In this document: piece by piece, positions 94 through 48,425 of the stretch | Layout: each line of letters begins with the position of its first letter | Position numbering within the stretch: the first letter of the stretch is position 1 | Origin: an uncultured bacterium | Lineage (GTDB): Bacteria > Patescibacteriota > Minisyncoccia > Phycocordibacterales > PALSA-1337 | Reading direction: 5' to 3' | Assembly: GCA_903839725.1 (NCBI GenBank) | Contig: CAIMDG010000001.1 | Location: 235,315 to 299,314 of the forward strand | DNA: 64,000 nt | Translations under genes and position numbers: made by a program | Notes under the pieces: model-generated | Database searches by the model: none | What the model saw: only the letters and a program-made list of their open reading frames with translations | What the model was told of the DNA's origin: nothing

Positions 94-711
94 TTATTTG
101 TACCTCTTTTTGATCTCTTCAAAAATCTCCGGAAATTCTAATTCATTGAAATGGTTTTGGTCTTTAAAGGTATGCGCCACAGCACTTGGAAAGAGTTCTT
201 TGTATGTTTCGAAATCACTAAATGGAACGACGACATCATCGGTACTGTGGAATAATACAATATCTTTAACTTGATTCGTGACACCACTTATATCATTTCC
301 AAAAATAAAGTTGGTATTGTACGTATGTTTCTTATTCTTACCATCATACGGCACAGCGACGAGAATAAGAGCTTTGATCTTCTTGGGAACAACATTCTCA
401 GAGAGATATTTGATCAAGAATAAACCACCCAATGAATGACCAACGAACGTAGCATCATCTTTCAAAAAAGGAATCATCCGTTCAAACCACGCTTTCCATT
501 CTTCATAACGAGCGTTCTCTTTGTTCGGCATGCGTGGTGCAAATACTTCGAAGTGTGGTCCGAGCTTTTCTTGGAGTGTATCAGTCCATTTGTGAGATGG
601 TTTGAAATTGGAAACTATAACCGCCTTTGTTTTGAGACGATTCAAAAAGTCCTCGCGAGTATCGAGTGCATGACCGCCGTGAATGAGGATGATTTGGTGA
701 GGCATAGCCAT
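94..711 (-). CDS. alpha/beta serine hydrolase, YdeN/RBBP9-like
   Basis: VGHSLGG nucleophile-elbow motif and an IILIHGG start. It is a paralog of the 53827..54393 product. The ORF-track 5' extension to 951 runs through a 46-bp palindrome and is judged non-coding, so the start was placed at MAMPHQ. Confidence 0.6.
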   Translation of the reverse strand: MAMPHQIILIHGGHALDTREDFLNRLKTKAVIVSNFKPSHKWTDTLQEKLGPHFEVFAPRMPNKENARYEEWKAWFERMIPFLKDDATFVGHSLGGLFLIKYLSENVVPKKIKALILVAVPYDGKNKKHTYNTNFIFGNDISGVTNQVKDIVLFHSTDDVVVPFSDFETYKELFPSAVAHTFKDQNHFNELEFPEIFEEIKKRYK

Positions 712-906
712 ATTATGACATTTTCTAGATGTATTTGCTTGAATTAAAAACTTTTTATCTCGCCTATTTGATAATTTTGTGATATAATTTAGTAACAACT
801 TTATGTTTTCTAATAAATCATTCGGATCAAGACCCTCCACATTTTTAACATTAGTTAGATTTATTCTTGCAGTACAAATTATGGCCCTATCATTGACTTT
901 CGTGTT

Positions 907-952
907 CATGAGGAATACAATAGTCCCAATTGGGACTATTGTATTCCTCATG
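907..952. repeat. 46-bp perfect palindrome catgaggaatacaatagtcccaattgggactattgtattcctcatg
   Basis: Read directly from the sequence. It is intergenic, upstream of the hydrolase gene. Confidence 0.9.
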
Positions 953-1005
953 AAGTGTGGATAACTTGCTAAATTAACTTTCTTAGTCTATACTATTTAT
1001 GTACC

Positions 1006-7082: not shown

Positions 7083-7111
7083 GTCGGGTATATTATACCA
7101 TGGAAGCGATA

Positions 7112-7209
7112 CAAATCCGCAAATGCATGCGAATGACGCAAATAAGCGCACCAAAATCTAAAATAGAGTGTGATTCATTCGCATTATTCGCATGCATTTG
7201 CGGATTTGC
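7112..7209. promoter_or_regulatory. long inverted repeat (caaatccgcaaatgcatgcgaat ... attcgcatgcatttgcggatttg) upstream of tkt; member of the AATGCGAAT palindrome family
   Basis: 23-bp perfect arms with a ~50-bp spacer, read from the sequence. Related sites at 7913..8001 and 41737..41797. Confidence 0.6.
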
Positions 7210-7216
7210 ATCGCAA

Positions 7217-7912: not shown

Positions 7913-8001
7913 TACGAATCTACGAATAATGCGAATCTACAAATTATTAATATGCGAATTGTTTGCGTTATTTGTGGCATTCGCATCATTTGTAGATTCG
8001 T
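7913..8001. promoter_or_regulatory. palindromic motif pair acgaatctacgaataatgcgaatctacaaat / atttgtggcattcgcatcatttgtagattcgt upstream of rpe
   Basis: Near-identical to the pair at 41737..41797 upstream of prfA. Confidence 0.6.
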
Positions 8002-22504: not shown

Positions 22505-22539
22505 ATAAATAAAATGTAGCATTAATTGAAAGAAGAACC

Positions 22540-22648
22540 AATAGGGGCACATGTACTTATTTTCTGCACAAGTTTAGAGACATGTACATTACATCGCGTA
22601 CCTCAATGTTTACAAACTTGTGCAGAAAATAAGTACATGTGCCCCTAT
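22540..22648. repeat. hairpin module E1: 36-bp perfect inverted arms around a 38-nt loop
   Basis: aataggggcacatgtacttattttctgcacaagttt - loop - aaacttgtgcagaaaataagtacatgtgcccctatt. Confidence 0.9.
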
Positions 22649-23046
22649 TGGTTTTTGATGTGGTATATGAAAACGCCACCACTTCTGGCAAGTGGCGGCG
22701 TGGTCCAAGGTTGATTCGTCCTCGCGGACGAATTATACATCAGATAGGTTGGGTTTGATTGCCAACCTCGTTTTTGATTGAAACTCAACGTATCAATGTG
22801 CGCCAGGGCACACGCCAGAATCATCCGGAAGTGCTCATGCATGGCCGCCGTGAATTCACGGGGTCTTGCAGAATTCCAACGGAAAGAGTGATACGTTGCA
22901 CCGATGCTCTGGGTAAACCAGAGTGTGCAAGCAGCTCCTACATACAGGAGCGGAAGAACATCAGTTGTGAAGATATTCATACCTAAAAAAAGTCTATAAC
23001 AAGGAGCATGTAATTGCAAGATGATGTAATACATAGCGACTAAGAA
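22649..23046. other. GC-rich (about 50 %) non-coding core with multiple stable hairpins between modules E1 and E2
   Basis: Contains a hairpin plus T-run at about 22746..22778, a ccgtgaattcacgg palindrome and a gctcctacatacaggagc hairpin. ORFs here have no protein-like features. Confidence 0.5.
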
Positions 23047-23156
23047 AACGGGGATGTATACACACTTTTTCTGTACAAGTTTGTAAACATTGAGGTACGC
23101 TGTGTAATGTAAGTGTCTCTAAACTTGTACAGAAAAAGTGTGTATGCACCCCCGTT
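23047..23156. repeat. hairpin module E2, an inverted copy of E1 with the loop conserved and arms diverged compensatorily
   Basis: The E2 loop is the reverse complement of the E1 loop (2-3 mismatches). The arms differ from E1 at many positions but remain self-complementary. Confidence 0.9.
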
Positions 23157-23202
23157 CTCTCCAACGATTCCTCAAAACAAAAATATATCGTATACTGGTG
23201 AT

Positions 23203-26199: not shown

Positions 26200-26271
26200 G
26201 GCCACGTAGAAAAGTGGTAATTCGGAAGTCTGCAAAACTTCTATGCGCGAGTTCGATTCTCGCCGTGGCCT
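26200..26271 (+). tRNA. tRNA-Cys (GCA)
   Basis: Manual fold: acceptor ggccacg/cgtggcc, anticodon loop ctGCAaa, T-arm gcgag-ttcgatt-ctcgc. Confidence 0.8.
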
Positions 26272-26355: not shown

Positions 26356-26877
26356 ATGCGAAAAAGAAGTTGGACAAAAGAAGATCTCGTAAAAGCGGTA
26401 ATAGAATCGAAGAGCGTGAGACAGACTATATCAAGGCTAAACCTTGTTGAAGCTGGTGGCAATTATAATCAAGTTAAGAAGTATATTAAATTATACAACT
26501 TAGATACATCACATTTTACTGGCTACACATGGAACAAAGGTATGTGTGGACGATATATGCCACTTATACCACTATCAAACATCTTAATAAGACATAGTGA
26601 ATTTCAAAGTTATAAACTTAAGAAACGTCTCTTCATCGAAAAAATCAAAACTCCCCAATGTGAAAACTGCGGTTGGGCAAAGAAATCAGAAGATGGTAGA
26701 ATCCCTCTTGAGCTTGACCATATCAATGGAGACAAGTACGATAATCGTATTGAGAACCTACGGGTTCTTTGTCCAAATTGTCATAGCTTACAACCTACAC
26801 ATCGAGGTAGAAATAAACACAAACGCCCGGGTGGTGAAATTGGTAAACACGTAACACTTAAAATGTTATCTTCGTAA
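26356..26877 (+). CDS. HNH endonuclease, homing-endonuclease-like freestanding type
   Basis: N-terminal SWTKEDLVKAV...GGNYNQVKKYI...DTSHF module and C-terminal HNH (LELDHINGDKYDNRIENLRVLCPNCH). The last ~53 nt of the ORF overlap tRNA-Leu. Confidence 0.8.
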   Translation: MRKRSWTKEDLVKAVIESKSVRQTISRLNLVEAGGNYNQVKKYIKLYNLDTSHFTGYTWNKGMCGRYMPLIPLSNILIRHSEFQSYKLKKRLFIEKIKTPQCENCGWAKKSEDGRIPLELDHINGDKYDNRIENLRVLCPNCHSLQPTHRGRNKHKRPGGEIGKHVTLKMLSS

Positions 26878-26908
26878 GGAGTTGTGGGTTCGATTCCCAC
26901 CCCGGGCA
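26825..26908 (+). tRNA. tRNA-Leu (TAA), type II with long variable arm
   Basis: Acceptor gcccggg/cccgggc, anticodon loop ctTAAaa, long variable arm, T-arm gtggg-ttcgatt-cccac. Confidence 0.8.
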
Positions 26909-29055: not shown

Positions 29056-32000
29056 ATGTCCCGCTTCAGCCACCTCCACGTCCACTCCCACTATTCTTTG
29101 CTTGCGGCACTACCAAAAGTTGATGATTTGGTAGATGAAGCCAAGAAACTCGGCATGAAGGCATTAGCACTTACTGACAATGGTAACCTCTATGGTGCTA
29201 TTGAATTCTATAAAGCCTGCACGAAAAAAGAGATCAAACCTATCATTGGTGTCGACTTTTTTGTCGCCATCCGTTCACGCACAGATCAACAGGCAGGAAT
29301 AGACAACCGTCGCAGTCGTCTCGTCCTTCTTGCTATGAATGAAAAGGGGTATCAAAATCTCATCCAACTCGTTACACTCTCACACCTCGAAGGTTTCTAT
29401 TACAAGCCTCGTATCGACCGCGAACTTATCGAAAAATACAGTGAAGGTCTTATCTGTATTTCGCCTTCATTCGGAGGGGAAATATCACAATCCCTCAAAA
29501 GCAGAAATCAAGACAAGGCCATAGAAGTAGCCACGTTCTATAAAAAAGTATTTGGTGACAGGCTATATATCGAAATAAGTCGACATCCTGAAATCGATGA
29601 TCATGAAGGAAATATGAAAACCTTGGCCACCTTCGCAAAAAGCCAACAGATTCCAGTATGCGCCGCACATGATGTGTACTATCTCAAACCAGAAGATCGT
29701 TTTGCTCGTGAGACACTTGTACGCGTGAATTCTCACAGTGATTCATCTGATCGTATTTCTGACAGTGATGAAGATGATTTTTCCTTTATTTCACCTGAGC
29801 GAGCTGAAGAACTATTCAGGGACATGCCTGAAGCTCTCGACAATACCCAGAAAATAGTTGATTTATGTAATCTCACCATGGAACTGGGTAAATGGGTCTT
29901 CCCTGCATTCACCGTAGAAAGTGGACGAACACCAGATGATGAATTGCGTCATGTGGTATTCGAAGGATTTGCTCGACGTGGTATCGAAAAAACAGATGAA
30001 CTCGTGAAGCGTGCGGAGTATGAACTCAAAGTCATCAAAGACAAAGGGTATTCTCCATACTTCCTTGTGGTGGCGGACATGCTTCGGTTTGCCAGAGAAA
30101 ATGGCATATTGAGTAATATCCGCGGATCAGTTTCTGGATCGATGGTCACGTATCTCGCAGGTATCACCAACATAAACCCGATTGAATATGAAATTCCCTT
30201 TGAACGCTTCCTGAATCCTGAACGTCCATCTGCTCCTGATATCGACATGGACTATGCTGACGATCGTCGCGATGACATGATTACCTATGTCCGTGGAAAA
30301 TACGGCAAGGATCACGTCGCTCAAATCGGAACATTCGGTACCATGGCTGCTCGTGGTTCAGTTCGTGACGTCGCTCGTGCTATGGGATTCCCCTACGATG
30401 TTGCTGATCGTATTTCAAAGATGATTCCTATGGGTGCACAAGGATTTCCCATGACTATTGATCGTGCCTTGAATGAAGTACCTGAGCTCAAAGAAATCTA
30501 CAATTCTGAACAGGATACTCGACGTATTATTGATATGGCAAGAAAGATCGAAGGTTGTGCGCGTCACATCGGTGTGCACGCTGCTGGTGTGGTTATTTCT
30601 CCGACTGCACTTACCGATTACACCGCACTTCAGTTTGATCCAAAAGGTGAAGGCAAAATCATCACCCAATACGATATGTACTCGATCGAAGAAGCTGGTC
30701 TTCTCAAGTTCGACTTCCTTGGGCTCAAAAACTTAACTATTATTGCCGACAGTATTGATCGCATCGAAAAGCTCACCGGTATCAAAGTTGATTACGATAC
30801 TATTCCCGTCGATGATACAAAAACATTCGAAATGCTTGCTCGCGGAGAAACTGCCGATCTCTTCCAGTTGAACGGTGACGGTATGACTAGATTCCTGAAA
30901 GACTTGAAACCAACAACCATTCACGACATCAACGCTATGGTGGCACTGTATCGTCCAGGTCCTATTCAGTTCATCCCGGAATATATTGCCCGCAAACACG
31001 ATCGATCACTCATCAAATATCTTGACCCTGCACTCGAGACAATTCTCGACAAAACATATGGCATTCTCGTGTATCAAGACGACCTCTTGATGATGGCTCA
31101 CAAGCTCGCTGGATATAGTTGGGGTGAAGTGGACAAGTTCCGTAAAGCCGTTGGTAAAAAAATTCCTGAAGAAATGGCGAAGCAAAAAGAGAAATTCATC
31201 GAAGGTTGTGTGAAGCACAGCAAATGGTCAGAGAAAAAAGCTAAAGAAGTCTGGAAATGGATTGAGCCATTTGCAGCGTACGGTTTCAACAAAGCTCACT
31301 CAGTATCATATGGTCGCGTCGCATATATTACTGCATACCTCAAAGCGCATTTTCCTGAAATATATTTGTCGGCTGTCCTTACATCTGAACAAGGTGAAAC
31401 TGAAAAAGTTGCTGAAACTATCGCTGAATGTAAGCGCATGAATATTCCTGTTCTTCCTCCTGACGTGAATGAAAGTTTCAGTCAATTCACTGTGGTCAAG
31501 ACTCTTGCAGAGGTCTCTCCAGAGCGGGCGCCAACTCCAAACCAACCGGCACAACATGTGCATGTGGGACGACCTTCGGAAGGAGCGAAGGCGAATCAGC
31601 AGATTCGTGCTTGGCCGACTGAGAATGAGGTGCTGGCCGAGCACGGCCAGACACCGTTCGTCCCACATGCACATGTTGTGCCGGTTGGTTCTTATCGCAT
31701 TCGTTTCGGTTTGGTAACGATCAAAAACTTCGGCCAAGGAATATCAACCGGCATCACCGATGAACGCAAGCGAGCTGGAAAATTCAAGTCATTGAATGAC
31801 TTCCTCGATCGCGTCAAAGACAAAAACCTCAATAAAAAATCTCTCGAAGCCCTCATCAAATCTGGAGCCATGGATTGCTTCGGTATTGATCGCGGTGTCA
31901 TGATGGCGAACCTCGATCTCATTCTTGATTACAACAAAGAAAATGCAAATCAGCACAGTGATCAAACATCCCTCTTCGGCATGTTCACCAATGCCTCTGA

Positions 32001-32418
32001 TGTACCAACTCTTCGTCTCATCGATGCGCCTCATGCCACAATGCGCGCCAAACTCGCATGGGAAAAGGAATTGCTTGGCTTGTATGTTTCAGGACATCCC
32101 CTTGAAGAATACCGCGAAATAATCACCAAAAGAGATATCGACATCAAACGAGCTCTTGAAACCGGCAAAGAAGGTGGCACTGTGGTATTGGCAGCCATGA
32201 TCAATGATGTGCGCCTCATTCAAACAAAAAAGAATGAAACTATGGCATTCATTACTATTGCTGATTTTTCCGGAGAATCAGAGGCCGTTGTATTCCCTCG
32301 CGTCTACAATGAATTCAAAGCACTTATTGCTCCTGATATTTGTCTCGCAATCAAAGCAACAATTAATTCAAGAAATGGAGAAAAAGGATTTATTCTGGAA
32401 CGATTAAAAAAACTATAA
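29056..32418 (+). CDS. dnaE: DNA polymerase III alpha subunit
   Basis: PHP domain (HLHVHSHYS), palm, fingers and OB domains. It contains an about 55-aa in-frame insertion encoded by a GC-rich palindromic element at 31540..31690. Confidence 0.95.
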   Translation: MSRFSHLHVHSHYSLLAALPKVDDLVDEAKKLGMKALALTDNGNLYGAIEFYKACTKKEIKPIIGVDFFVAIRSRTDQQAGIDNRRSRLVLLAMNEKGYQNLIQLVTLSHLEGFYYKPRIDRELIEKYSEGLICISPSFGGEISQSLKSRNQDKAIEVATFYKKVFGDRLYIEISRHPEIDDHEGNMKTLATFAKSQQIPVCAAHDVYYLKPEDRFARETLVRVNSHSDSSDRISDSDEDDFSFISPERAEELFRDMPEALDNTQKIVDLCNLTMELGKWVFPAFTVESGRTPDDELRHVVFEGFARRGIEKTDELVKRAEYELKVIKDKGYSPYFLVVADMLRFARENGILSNIRGSVSGSMVTYLAGITNINPIEYEIPFERFLNPERPSAPDIDMDYADDRRDDMITYVRGKYGKDHVAQIGTFGTMAARGSVRDVARAMGFPYDVADRISKMIPMGAQGFPMTIDRALNEVPELKEIYNSEQDTRRIIDMARKIEGCARHIGVHAAGVVISPTALTDYTALQFDPKGEGKIITQYDMYSIEEAGLLKFDFLGLKNLTIIADSIDRIEKLTGIKVDYDTIPVDDTKTFEMLARGETADLFQLNGDGMTRFLKDLKPTTIHDINAMVALYRPGPIQFIPEYIARKHDRSLIKYLDPALETILDKTYGILVYQDDLLMMAHKLAGYSWGEVDKFRKAVGKKIPEEMAKQKEKFIEGCVKHSKWSEKKAKEVWKWIEPFAAYGFNKAHSVSYGRVAYITAYLKAHFPEIYLSAVLTSEQGETEKVAETIAECKRMNIPVLPPDVNESFSQFTVVKTLAEVSPERAPTPNQPAQHVHVGRPSEGAKANQQIRAWPTENEVLAEHGQTPFVPHAHVVPVGSYRIRFGLVTIKNFGQGISTGITDERKRAGKFKSLNDFLDRVKDKNLNKKSLEALIKSGAMDCFGIDRGVMMANLDLILDYNKENANQHSDQTSLFGMFTNASDVPTLRLIDAPHATMRAKLAWEKELLGLYVSGHPLEEYREIITKRDIDIKRALETGKEGGTVVLAAMINDVRLIQTKKNETMAFITIADFSGESEAVVFPRVYNEFKALIAPDICLAIKATINSRNGEKGFILERLKKL
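31540..31690. repeat. ~150-bp GC-rich nested palindrome inserted in frame in dnaE
   Basis: 33-bp perfect inverted arms aaccaaccggcacaacatgtgcatgtgggacga / tcgtcccacatgcacatgttgtgccggttggtt with inner palindromes. About 58 % GC against about 38 % for the gene. Confidence 0.85.
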
Positions 32419-41719: not shown

Positions 41720-41736
41720 AGTGGTTTAAATATAAT

Positions 41737-41797
41737 ACGAATCAACGAATAATGCGAATGCAACAAATTTGTAGCATTCGCATTATTTGTAGATTCG
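41737..41797. promoter_or_regulatory. palindromic motif pair acgaatcaacgaataatgcgaatgcaacaaat / atttgtagcattcgcattatttgtagattcg upstream of prfA
   Basis: Nearly identical to 7913..8001. Confidence 0.6.
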
Positions 41798-41804
41798 AAT
41801 CTCC

Positions 41805-48125: not shown

Positions 48126-48425
48126 ACATGACTGTTGGTAACTCGACTTCGCAACCCCTCTAATCTAAGCTAAGGTACAGGACAGATTTTGATATTTCTG
48201 GTATTATTATTTTACAACTGAATAAGTGACCTAACCCCTAAATAACCCTTTGTTTTCTAGGATATGGTCGAAAAGCCGTCCAAAGTAAAGAACTCCTAAT
48301 CAGAGCTACTTTGGACGGTCACATCTCGAAAGAGGTGTGGGCACTCCCTGCGGGGTTTGTCGGCCTGGTTAGGAGCTTTTTGCTATCTAGTTCTCGGTCA
48401 TTATTAGTAAAACCGTCCAAATTTT

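Follow-up and report, generated by a model that had tools for sequence, protein, structure and literature searches.

A structured palindromic insert in dnaE of a patescibacterium and its apparent relatives in other genes and genomes

The dnaE gene in a 64,000-nt stretch of patescibacterial DNA (the window) contains a long palindrome through which the open reading frame continues. The locus raises the question of whether this palindrome is real, what it is, and how it came to lie in frame within the gene for DNA polymerase III alpha. In-frame palindromic selfish DNA in protein-coding genes is a curiosity seen mainly in Rickettsia. An earlier note, made from the sequence alone, had read the palindrome as an in-frame insertion of the Rickettsia (RPE) type. 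That reading holds in essence, on evidence from other genomes.

The palindrome and the composite insert in dnaE

Inverted-repeat detection in the window revealed two arms of 33 nt each, 100% complementary and separated by 85 nt, at the same coordinates that had been reported from inspection of the sequence. No such arm match occurred in 100 dinucleotide-preserving shuffles. The folding energy was -111.9 kcal/mol (z = -10.1) for the plus strand and -108.1 kcal/mol (z = -11.4) for the minus strand. The palindromic element comprises 151 bp and is able to form a long hairpin, and its size corresponds to that of RPE-like elements (100 to 150 bp). Mirrored ORFs described for the two strands, 31306..31737 (-) and 31469..31717 (+), are present in the ORF list, and the peptides TNRHNMCMWD and SSHMHMLCRLV were found in the translations of both strands. 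The GC content of the element had been put at about 58%, in agreement with the 0.58 to 0.59 determined here, but the accompanying figure of about 38% for the gene did not stand (about 0.37 to 0.54 for the gene and 0.41 for the window).

Comparison with the closest empty allele, that of relative L002, revealed that the whole insert comprises 192 nt (64 codons) in place of 15 nt. The net gain is 59 amino acids (1,120 versus 1,061 aa) instead of the approximately 55 aa first estimated. The 151-bp hairpin, which had been taken for the insert itself, is real but makes up only part of this composite. The 192 nt also hold an extra internal hairpin and a 5' extension of 39 nt, which, judged by its resemblance to an arm at L004, probably survives from the 5' arm of an earlier family copy. 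The extra hairpin belongs to a 24-nt (8-codon) block that occurs only in the window and L001 copies and corresponds to a 24-column gap elsewhere in the family alignment. The ORF reads straight through the element, and this continuity is what points to its translation. Predicted tryptic peptides of the insert are ANQQIR and AWPTENEVLAEHGQTPFVPHAHVVPVGSYR.

Chimeras formed during amplification are known to leave long perfect inverted repeats, which favors an assembly artefact (a fold-back chimera or collapsed hairpin), to which a local product of template switching alone may be added. However, an independent assembly from another sample (L098) is identical over all 3,363 nt of dnaE, element included, and the exact DnaE protein is present on 13 contigs (NCBI and ENA). 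Samples with this population include ENA ERZ18632439; the sample for L001 is ERZ27300174. The collapsed hairpin and chimeric reads against which the earlier note had cautioned are excluded by these data. With respect to a local origin, the arms are not copied from adjacent dnaE sequence, and the core is common to copies in other genes and genomes. Artefact and purely local origin are effectively refuted.

Features of the window copy (coordinates are those of the window)
Feature	Coordinates	Strand	Basis
dnaE (DNA polymerase III alpha), host gene, 1120 aa	29056..32418	+	ORF list and translation
Whole insert; empty allele of closest relative L002 has TCTGAAGAAGGAACG (SEEGT) here	31501..31692	+	Comparison with L002 and L001
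5' extension (putative older arm); GGTCTCTCCAGAGCGG resembles L004 arm GTGTCTCCAAAGCGA	31501..31539	+	Sequence reading, inference
Helix P1, 5' arm, 33 nt	31540..31572	+	Inverted-repeat detection, shuffles, folding
P2a mini-hairpin CUU[CGG]AAG	31574..31582	+	Family alignment
P2b hairpin GAGC[GAAG]GCGA with tandem G.A/A.G	31583..31594	+	Family alignment
Extra P3-like hairpin CGAAUC[AGCA]GAUUCG	31592..31607	+	Family alignment
Conserved junction CUGAGAAUGAG	31619..31629	+	Near-invariant in family alignment
P3: GGUG/CACC, A bulge, 7-bp stem closing conserved loop AGCA	31629..31655	+	Family alignment
Helix P1, 3' arm, 33 nt	31658..31690	+	Inverted-repeat detection, shuffles, folding

Occupancy of the site and its place in DnaE

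DnaE orthologues carry the domains PHP, DNA_pol3_alpha, finger, HHH_6, and OB and range from 1,059 to 1,197 aa in length, with the variation located at two hot spots. Alignment of the orthologues confirmed the insertion; the site is empty (5 residues) in L002, and others carry a homologous segment. About a third of 121 close orthologues have the element at the window site in either orientation. A regular-expression tally gave 14 in frame F1 and 18 in frame R1, so that the two orientations are about equally common. A short loop occupies the site in 68 of the 121 orthologues, and many others have truncated or decayed copies (e.g., P0003 and L006b). A homologous segment devoid of palindromic DNA had been named in advance as evidence against an insertion of this kind; in the orthologues, the segment has palindromic DNA in both orientations. 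Six-frame translation revealed that the two most frequent families of recurring insert peptides correspond to the two strands of a single element, the one described here. The remaining recurring families look separate, and other, unrelated palindrome families were found at the same hot spots.

The site maps to residues 883 to 885 of Taq Pol III alpha and forms a tight beta-turn at the tip of a beta-hairpin in the solved Pol III alpha structure. The suggestion that the insert might sit in a loop was borne out by the shortness of the site in relatives, namely, the 5 residues of L002 and about 1 residue in Thermus aquaticus. AlphaFold modeled the insert as coil (pLDDT about 25) between two strands; the model was generated from a 40-sequence alignment, has a poor mean pLDDT of 61, and was used only for local secondary structure. 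The insert is thus predicted to be a hydrophilic disordered loop.

An adaptive loop selected at the protein level, with the palindromic DNA incidental, would be consistent with the single change among 43 amino acids in the 5' part of the insert between the window copy and L001. Over the same 43 codons, however, only 4 third positions differ, compared to about 35 to 45% in the flanks. In relatives, the same DNA at this site encodes entirely different peptides (F1 and R1), the loop is missing in most orthologues, and it is predicted to be disordered. An adaptive origin is therefore extremely unlikely.

A conserved core with divergent arms in several genes

A core 20-mer was scanned against 185,579 species genomes. 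The scan revealed six true loci, in dnaE, topA, tgt, and one intergenic site, with two topA sites in each of two genomes; the tgt copy lies in a Saccharibacteria MAG and the intergenic copy in Nomurabacteria. Covariance-model searches added mnmA and several gene 3' ends. Further sites of the element are accordingly a second dnaE site, two topA sites, tgt, mnmA, and intergenic gene 3' ends, and a near-identical core occurs in unrelated genes and in another CPR class. The frame is open through the element in dnaE, topA, and mnmA, and also in tgt apart from one TAG. Copy number is low: the 64-kb window has a single copy, related DNA has about one in every 100 kb, and genomes matched in the species-wide scan have one to two exact-core copies each, whereas RPEs have many dispersed copies per genome. 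The window copy belongs to a low-copy family of structured palindromes in Patescibacteria that appears not to have been described before. The proposal of a selfish palindrome family colonizing coding sequence is thus supported from other genomes but not from the single copy in the window, and an 18-bp element that had been invoked as kin showed no sequence link to it in the window. Two core patterns had no matches in viral contigs, with no sign of a phage vector. A profile of the element-encoded peptide (A2) retrieved only two tiny ORFs from a 5.8-billion-protein database, because significance is out of reach for a 42-aa profile against so large a database.

The family core consists of P2a, P2b, the junction CUGAGAAYGA, and P3 with the loop AGCA, closed by the long arms. 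The conserved part is this structured core and not the arms. Pairing in P1 and P3 was found in 89.2% of cells, compared to 61.3% in shuffles and 38 to 51% in slid controls, and 29 of 30 pairs have changes on both sides, in an alignment that was fitted to the model. In P3 alone, 97% of cells are paired and 11/11 pairs have changes on both sides. The closing pair of P2a is changed from C-G to G-C in L014, and P2a competes with an alternative 6-bp pairing, CCUUCG/CGAAGG. Compensatory changes in P2b were observed in L009b (C-G to U-A), in L013 (G.A/A.G to C-G/U-A), and also in L014. The arms differ at almost every locus yet remain complementary (about 45 to 60% diverged, 93% paired). G.U exceeded A.C in P1 (17 versus 2), which lends weak support to selection on a single strand; the asymmetry was down-weighted because most cases adjoin a conserved asymmetric internal loop.

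In at least three independent pairs, the cores are 3 to 8% diverged, compared to 35 to 68% at fourfold sites of the hosts. From P1i to the junction, 1 to 5 of 36 nt differ, and between the window copy and L001, 1 of 60. In the latter pair, divergence of about 35% at fourfold sites falls to 3.9% exactly at position 31501. Homing with co-conversion was rejected in two pairs because the sequence adjoining the insert has diverged to the same extent as the remainder of the gene. P3 does not vary within clades and is bimodal overall, being either identical or wholly different; one P3 is common to L007, L095, and L097, and another to L004 and L094. Similarity of P3 and the inner arm tracks host relatedness, and element similarity as a whole does so in part. 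Vertical descent with purifying selection on the nucleic acid in situ would also explain conserved cores, a point that counts against mobility.

The copies use two reading frames only, exactly those linked by a flip of the core between the arms, and such a flip reproduces the F1 and R1 frames with the arm peptides unchanged. Concerted changes of both arms distinguish L007 from L095 and site A from site B of L004, and the 63-nt 3' half of the L001 copy has been swapped.

These data bear on the question of whether the insert is removed or skipped before the final DnaE is made, through RNA-level excision, translational bypassing ("byp"-like), or protein splicing. GC-rich palindromic "byp" elements are associated with translational bypassing. 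The predicted RNA hairpin is extremely stable, and the tgt copy of L005 has an in-frame TAG in a frame that is otherwise kept; both speak for removal. All other coding copies examined, however, are open, have lengths that are multiples of three, and use two frames only, which argues against removal because a removed insert needs neither an open frame nor such a limit. The L005 TAG coincides with a broken P3 pair, which suggests either a sequencing error or a point mutation that arose recently. No ribozyme or intron family of Rfam was matched; a search of Rfam 15 with three copies returned only generic long-hairpin (miRNA-precursor) matches, all far below the gathering threshold. An intein spans some 130 aa or more and contains splicing blocks; it begins with Cys or Ser and ends with His-Asn, and the next residue is Cys, Ser, or Thr. 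The insert, in agreement with the earlier note, is no intein: it has 64 residues, starts with TLAE, ends with VGS before YR, and lacks intein blocks and junction residues; the orthologues have no intein domain on record. Taken together, removal or bypass is very unlikely. A hammerhead-like reading of CUGAGAA was rejected by eye because the junction after P3 is GU rather than GAAA. The LOOT RNA in the window was considered as a relative and rejected, its structure being unrelated to the element.

A more serious alternative is that the element functions as a structured nucleic acid, either DNA (hairpin or cruciform) or RNA, that is under purifying selection in situ, was inherited vertically from ancient insertions, and has a host-level or regulatory role in genes of DNA and tRNA metabolism. 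The contrast between cores and synonymous sites, the strong covariation in P1 and P3, and the parallel between host relatedness and P3 plus inner-arm similarity are consistent with it. So are the recurrence of the same sites in dnaE and topA and the position of intergenic copies at gene 3' ends, like REP-like stabilizers or terminators. On the other hand, the short loops in most orthologues and the decayed copies indicate that the element is dispensable. The near equality of the two orientations argues against a cis role in mRNA, and the near-identical core recurs in unrelated genes and a different CPR class. The bimodality of P3 points to swaps rather than slow constrained change, and unrelated palindrome families occupy the same hot spots. 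We therefore consider in situ function unlikely.

Proposed origin and comparison with known elements

With moderate confidence, we favor the explanation that the palindromes are a low-copy, GC-rich, structure-defined family of Patescibacteria, selfish DNA of the RPE/MITE kind that is read through as a disordered loop. The core would be recognized by trans-acting mobilizing machinery on one strand of the hairpin or cruciform, which would account for a sequence conserved between genes, between genomes, and even between CPR classes. The arms would matter as a helix only and would be kept complementary by arm-to-arm copying, in the form of quasipalindrome template switching or intra-element conversion. 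Such copying would let the arms drift at a roughly neutral rate while paired and would also account for the perfect 33/33 arms in the window. In E. coli, template switching at quasipalindromes is suppressed by ExoI, ExoVII, SbcCD, and RecJ. Recombination between the arms would flip the core and yield exactly the two reading frames seen, and gene conversion may exchange modules between copies, as in the swapped half of L001. The insert would persist because its translation product of about 59 aa is a hydrophilic, disordered loop and the turn is permissive. Rather unlikely is the broader reading that the family represents a novel kind of structure-specific element directed at particular loops in genes for replication, topology, and tRNA modification throughout Patescibacteria, with a core either recognized as single-stranded DNA or RNA by a host or element-encoded enzyme or selected in situ. 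Such recognition or selection would account for a core that is 5- to 15-fold more conserved than synonymous sites, with arms continuously rewritten by hairpin-templated copying and a core that flips between two coding frames.

The favored selfish family resembles RPEs, which are inserted in frame, add to the host protein a peptide that has a conserved element-encoded sequence and is predicted to fit the host fold, and number 44 insertions in the R. conorii genome (PMC10969869). The likeness is one of form and placement: palindromes of about 100 to 150 bp, in frame in unrelated housekeeping genes of reduced genomes and read through. In contrast to RPEs, the hosts are Patescibacteria rather than Alphaproteobacteria, copies are few rather than tens per Rickettsia genome, and insertions recur in the same small set of loops in different species. 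Furthermore, an internal multi-hairpin core is conserved while the arms are locus specific, and one site can have the element in either orientation, the two being linked by a flip. Rfam contains no RPE family.

Bacterial MITEs (e.g., Correia/NEMIS, ERIC, and Nezha) are likewise small, noncoding, and nonautonomous, with inverted terminal arms and intergenic as well as occasional in-frame intragenic insertions. Their terminal repeats, however, are conserved transposase sites that match a parent IS, whereas the termini here are the least conserved part (arms 45 to 60% diverged around a conserved core), the loci examined yielded no parent IS, and no target-site duplication was seen by eye in a few copies. 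REP/BIME sequences (RAYT, HUH Y1) and hairpin recognition in IS200/IS605 share with the element the weight of hairpin structure over sequence and some copies at gene 3' ends; they also lack target-site duplications, and none was seen by eye in a few copies here. By this analogy, machinery of the RAYT or IS200/IS605 type would be the most plausible kind to act on the element. REPs themselves differ in being high-copy extragenic palindromes of 20 to 40 nt with a conserved GTAG-type 5' tetranucleotide and a RAYT gene; the element has 100 to 150 nt and is often intragenic.

Mitochondrial genes of Nematomorpha contain coding palindromes of up to 284 bp (PMC6649704), which are also long perfect inverted repeats within genes, with both arms translated (here judged by ORF continuity). 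These are organellar and have no described conserved structured core, whereas a family-specific core spread across genomes is present here. Template switching at quasipalindromes, an established mutational mechanism (PMC7202029), turns imperfect into perfect inverted repeats and produces seemingly concerted multibase changes, which matches the behavior of the arms. Template switching is a process of mutation rather than an element, and covers the upkeep of the arms but not the origin or spread of the core.

The phenomenon known from Rickettsia is thus now seen in the candidate phyla radiation, within essential genes including dnaE and topA. The family provides a defined structural model with covariation, evidence for three dynamics (flipping, module swapping, and arm-to-arm copying), and a natural experiment in which a sequence constraint on the core stands against a pure pairing constraint on the arms. 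It makes testable how hairpin elements that lack their own transposase move, how perfect palindromes are maintained in reduced genomes, and what share of CPR protein length variation is mobile-element debris. In practice, the inserts inflate and fragment marker-gene alignments (dnaE and topA) in CPR phylogenomics.

With respect to mobilization, no transposase or other mobilizing gene was linked to the element, and no Y1 transposase was found among the Pfam-scanned neighbors. No parent IS with matching ends and no RAYT or TnpA gene was found in the loci examined. A 129-aa ORF at 22645-23034, flanked by two long palindromes, was considered as an IS200-like transposase and rejected; it had no Pfam hit, its PHROG matches were insignificant (E = 0.077 and 0.19), and its composition looks noncoding. 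No direct repeat was seen by eye at the ends of the window copy, both L004 copies (A and B), or the L007 and L049 copies, where extension of the palindromic arms could mask a short duplication. Sequence comparison of L007 with L095 is suggestive of outer arms that are inverted copies of the target flank. A CGCTTC repeat is present at site A of L093.

The palindrome in dnaE and its insertion site

Analysis of the dnaE gene confirmed the perfect palindrome where the earlier note had placed it, and a comparable arm match occurred in 0/100 dinucleotide-preserving shuffles of the window. The element was predicted to fold at -111.9 kcal/mol (z = -10.1) on the plus strand and at -108.1 kcal/mol (z = -11.4) on the minus strand. 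Its GC content is 0.58 to 0.59, compared with approximately 0.37 to 0.54 along dnaE and 0.41 in the window. The mirrored ORFs and the peptides common to both strands were verified in the ORF list and by translation; they arise because the element is palindromic. The earlier note had named an assembly artefact as grounds for rejection. The palindrome is no such artefact: 13 contigs (NCBI and ENA) record the identical DnaE protein, and L098, assembled independently from a different sample, is identical over 3363/3363 nt of dnaE, with 4 differences in 18.9 kb.

The nearest DnaE proteins belong to Patescibacteria (source names Paceibacteria, Taylorbacteria, and Parcubacteria), and orthologues at 70 to 96% identity are 1059 to 1197 aa long. 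Two hot spots of length variation emerged among the 120 orthologues inspected, site A (from FYKKVFG to RL(Y/F)IEITRHPE) and site B (from FTV(V/I)K to YRIRFGLVTIKNFG), the latter holding the window element. In L002, the closest relative with DNA at hand, site B is empty (AAA-TCTGAAGAAGGAACG-TATCGC, encoding SEEGT), and the bounds of the insert were therefore set from this allele. The DnaE proteins of L002 and the window share 88% identity across their full length, insert counted, and 94% across aligned residues. The insert flanks align to residues 883 and 885 of Thermus aquaticus Pol III alpha (solved structure) and to residues 845 and 850 of Mycobacterium tuberculosis DnaE1; the insertion site is a tight turn of Pol III alpha. 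An AlphaFold model of DnaE (40 orthologues), poor overall with a mean pLDDT of 61, places the insert as coil (pLDDT of about 25) between beta-strands 810-816 and 879-885. A protein-level function of the insert is unlikely, as is its removal or bypass.

Coordinates of the dnaE element, of other features of the window, and of related loci (window positions unless a locus is named)
Feature	Position	Strand	Description
dnaE host ORF	29056..32418	+	1120 aa, DNA polymerase III alpha; from ORF list and orthologues
Whole insert	31501-31692		192 nt, net +59 aa relative to L002 empty allele
Stretch preceding window copy	31501-31539		39 nt, resembles 5' arm of another family member
Inverted arms	31540-31572 and 31658-31690		33 nt each, 100% complementary, 85 nt between
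P3-like hairpin	31592-31607		in extra 24-nt block of window and L001 copies
Long hairpins	22533-22656 and 23043-23160		related, 51-nt and 47-nt arms, mutually inverted
Bracketed stretch	22657-23042		about 390 nt, relatively GC-rich (up to 0.57), between aminotransferase and DUF4446 genes
AT-rich palindromes	7106-7214, 7914-8001, 41735-41800		intergenic, arms 23-38 nt, 88-91% complementary
Perfect palindrome	905-954		50 nt (25 + 25 nt, no spacer), at start of minus-strand ORF 94..951
LOOT RNA	48228-48357	+	Rfam RF03000, 68.8 bits (gathering score 46.4)
HNH endonuclease ORF	26356-26877	+	Pfam HNH_3 and HNH; between tRNA genes 26200-26271 and 26825-26908
tgt copy	L005 1559-1670		Saccharibacteria MAG
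Different in-frame element	L093 4850-4960		dnaE site A, Pacebacteria MAG; 111 nt, 30-bp perfect arms
492-aa ORF	L097 4301-5779		directly downstream of element-bearing dnaE

Structure and distribution of the element family

Certain types recur among the insert peptides of the orthologues. When the window element was translated in six frames, the two commonest types, F1 (...RPSEGAKA..ENEV.AEH..TPF...) and R1 (...RTVSGSAEPAP.SQSPSLLPKV...), proved to come from opposite strands of a single DNA element. A regular-expression tally, which misses several more family copies recognizable by eye, assigned F1 to 14/121, R1 to 18/121, and a short loop to 68/121 orthologues at site B and found 5 family carriers at site A.

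A structural model was derived from an alignment of 22 copies. The long helix P1 is split into outer and inner parts by a conserved asymmetric internal loop (5' GAAA or GAGA versus 3' UGAGG). It is followed by P2a, a 3-bp hairpin (NUU[UCGG]AAN); P2b (GAGC[GAAG]GCGA), with tandem G.A/A.G pairs that are Watson-Crick in the L013 copy; the conserved junction CUGAGAAYGA; and P3, in which 4 bp, an A bulge, and then a 7-bp stem lead to the conserved loop AGCA. The return junction from P3 to P1 is 2 nt. Standard pairs occupy 89.2% of the alignment cells, compared with 61.3% in shuffles and 38 to 51% in slid controls, and 29/30 pairs have changes on both sides; these counts are favored by the alignment having been fitted to the model. 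P3 is 97% paired, with three or four pair types at most of its pairs. RNAalifold recovered the same P1 and P3 from an independent MAFFT alignment. The window insert is composite because it carries an extra 24-nt block and the preceding arm-like stretch. None of three tested copies matched an Rfam family.

A 20-mer of the core was scanned across one genome per species (185,579 species) and was found at 8 loci, 6 of them true. The true loci are in dnaE (two genomes, one with two copies), in topA (two genomes, both with the same two sites occupied, in opposite orientations between genomes), in tgt, and in an intergenic region of a Nomurabacteria MAG. The matches in Azospira fabI and Delongbacteria secA are chance and lack the element. 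Covariance models of the family (also named R1 and R2) gave 28 matches over 1.39 Mb of related DNA, including mnmA (L095) and several sites directly past stop codons, e.g., 3' of RNase R, in the nusB/rnhB gap, and 3' of dnaE. Outside dnaE, the density is about 1 per 100 kb of this DNA; a covariance search with filters off found no second family copy in the 64-kb window. That unrelated genes and different CPR classes share a near-identical core speaks for horizontal mobility, in which some machinery would recognize the core.

The same dnaE hot spots are also taken by unrelated palindrome families. The core peptide of the L093 element, SQSSRGLVASDQRPQ, recurs in orthologue P0031 with different arms, and the host sequence adjoining the L093 element contains a repeat of its arm end, CGCTTC. 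The IPAKAGIQ...LDSRLRGNDT inserts of P0065, P0072, and P0075, at sites A and B, seem to represent both strands of a further palindromic repeat. The L097 ORF has a weak Transposase_20 (IS110-type) match.

Orientation and divergence of the copies

Reverse-complementing a typical copy leaves the arm peptides unchanged and converts the F1 core peptide in frame into the R1 core peptide. Of the six frames, only F1 and R1 are in use, in roughly equal numbers. In the close relatives L007 and L095, the arms at the same site are homologous and the core orientation is opposite. Inversion by recombination between the arms would be the simplest account of the two orientations, and flipping combined with selection against harmful insertions would explain the restriction to two frames and to loop tips.

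Divergence between paired copies of the element and at fourfold sites of the host gene
Pair	Host fourfold	Core (P1i to junction)	P3	5' arm	3' arm
Window / L001	34.5%	1/60	14/27	1/22	11/27
L007 / L095	50%	1/36	0/27	10/22	9/27
L004 / L094	55%	3/36	2/27	12/22	12/27
L095 / L097	59%	5/36	0/27	13/22	11/27

Apart from window/L001, the pairs have arms that diverge at a roughly neutral rate and yet are about 93% paired. Selection on pairing would slow such change, as in P3, which favors arm-to-arm copying as the process that may keep the arms paired. Quasipalindrome template switching is an established process that yields exactly such concerted changes (PMC7202029) and would also account for the perfect 33/33 arms in the window. 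The two L004 copies are identical in core and inner arms and differ on both arms in one block (CAGG/CCTG versus AGCTAG/CTAGCT), and multi-base and indel differences between L007 and L095 are mirrored on both arms.

P3 divergence is bimodal, the helix being identical or wholly different. Within the insert, the window and L001 copies differ at 5 of the first 129 nt (3.9%; third positions, 4/43) and at 29 of the last 63 nt (46%), a stretch of equal length in which P3 is still complete and fully compensated and the 3' arm is of the family type; the sequences thus point to a module swap. The low divergence begins exactly at 31501, with 3 differences already in the 15 nt upstream and the usual 8 to 15 differences per 90 nt in flanking windows. 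Flank co-conversion was found neither in this pair nor in L007 versus L095. Third-position divergence lower than in the rest of dnaE was seen at 32251-32385 (window versus L001) and at DnaE residues 744-803 (L007 versus L095), a pattern suggestive of insert-independent mosaics formed by recombination between related lineages of Patescibacteria.

The main rival explanation, that purifying selection for a DNA- or RNA-level function keeps the core in place, is favored by the rate contrast between core and host fourfold sites and by P3 similarity following host relatedness. We consider it rather improbable, since the short-loop orthologues (68/121) show the element to be dispensable, decayed copies occur (truncated or degenerate P0003, L006b, and many unclassified inserts), both orientations are equally used, and P3 is bimodal. 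The tgt copy keeps its frame with one in-frame TAG at a mismatched P3 pair; recent nonsense mutation, pseudogenization, or an error in sequencing could account for it. Overall, the data agree with a selfish palindromic element that depends on its structure. The earlier note's interpretation was thus right in kind; several of its details are corrected here, and the support lies outside the window.

Known systems and other features of the window

The closest analogue is the Rickettsia palindromic element, an insertion of about 150 bp that sits in frame within housekeeping genes and codes for a conserved peptide (PMC10969869). In contrast to that element, the present family occurs in a different phylum (Patescibacteria), is low in copy number, reuses the same loops recurrently, joins locus-specific arms to an internal core that is conserved, and has dual coding related by a flip. 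It lacks the conserved termini of MITEs and does not qualify as REP. Reading by eye revealed no direct repeat at the ends of the window, L004, L007, and L049 copies, where palindromic arm extension could hide a short target-site duplication. A parallel at the level of the phenomenon is seen in the coding palindromes of nematomorph mitochondria (PMC6649704). Full-text literature searches, of incomplete coverage and hence no proof of novelty, returned nothing relevant on palindromic elements or MITEs in candidate phyla radiation/Patescibacteria.

The motifs ATTCGCAT and ACGAATCTACGAATAATGCGAAT are common to the AT-rich intergenic palindromes, which make up this genome's second family of palindromic repeats and have no sequence relationship to the dnaE element. 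The hairpin-bracketed stretch (22533-23160) may be an insertion in its own right, either mobile or bearing a non-coding RNA; the aminotransferase/DUF4446 spacer of L002 is only about 210 nt. A 129-aa ORF within it is odd in composition and gave no Pfam match and only insignificant PHROG matches. The LOOT RNA, a structured orphan RNA, has no relation to the palindromic element. The HNH ORF looks like a mobile homing-type gene, because an equivalent is present in L003 and absent from the otherwise collinear L002.
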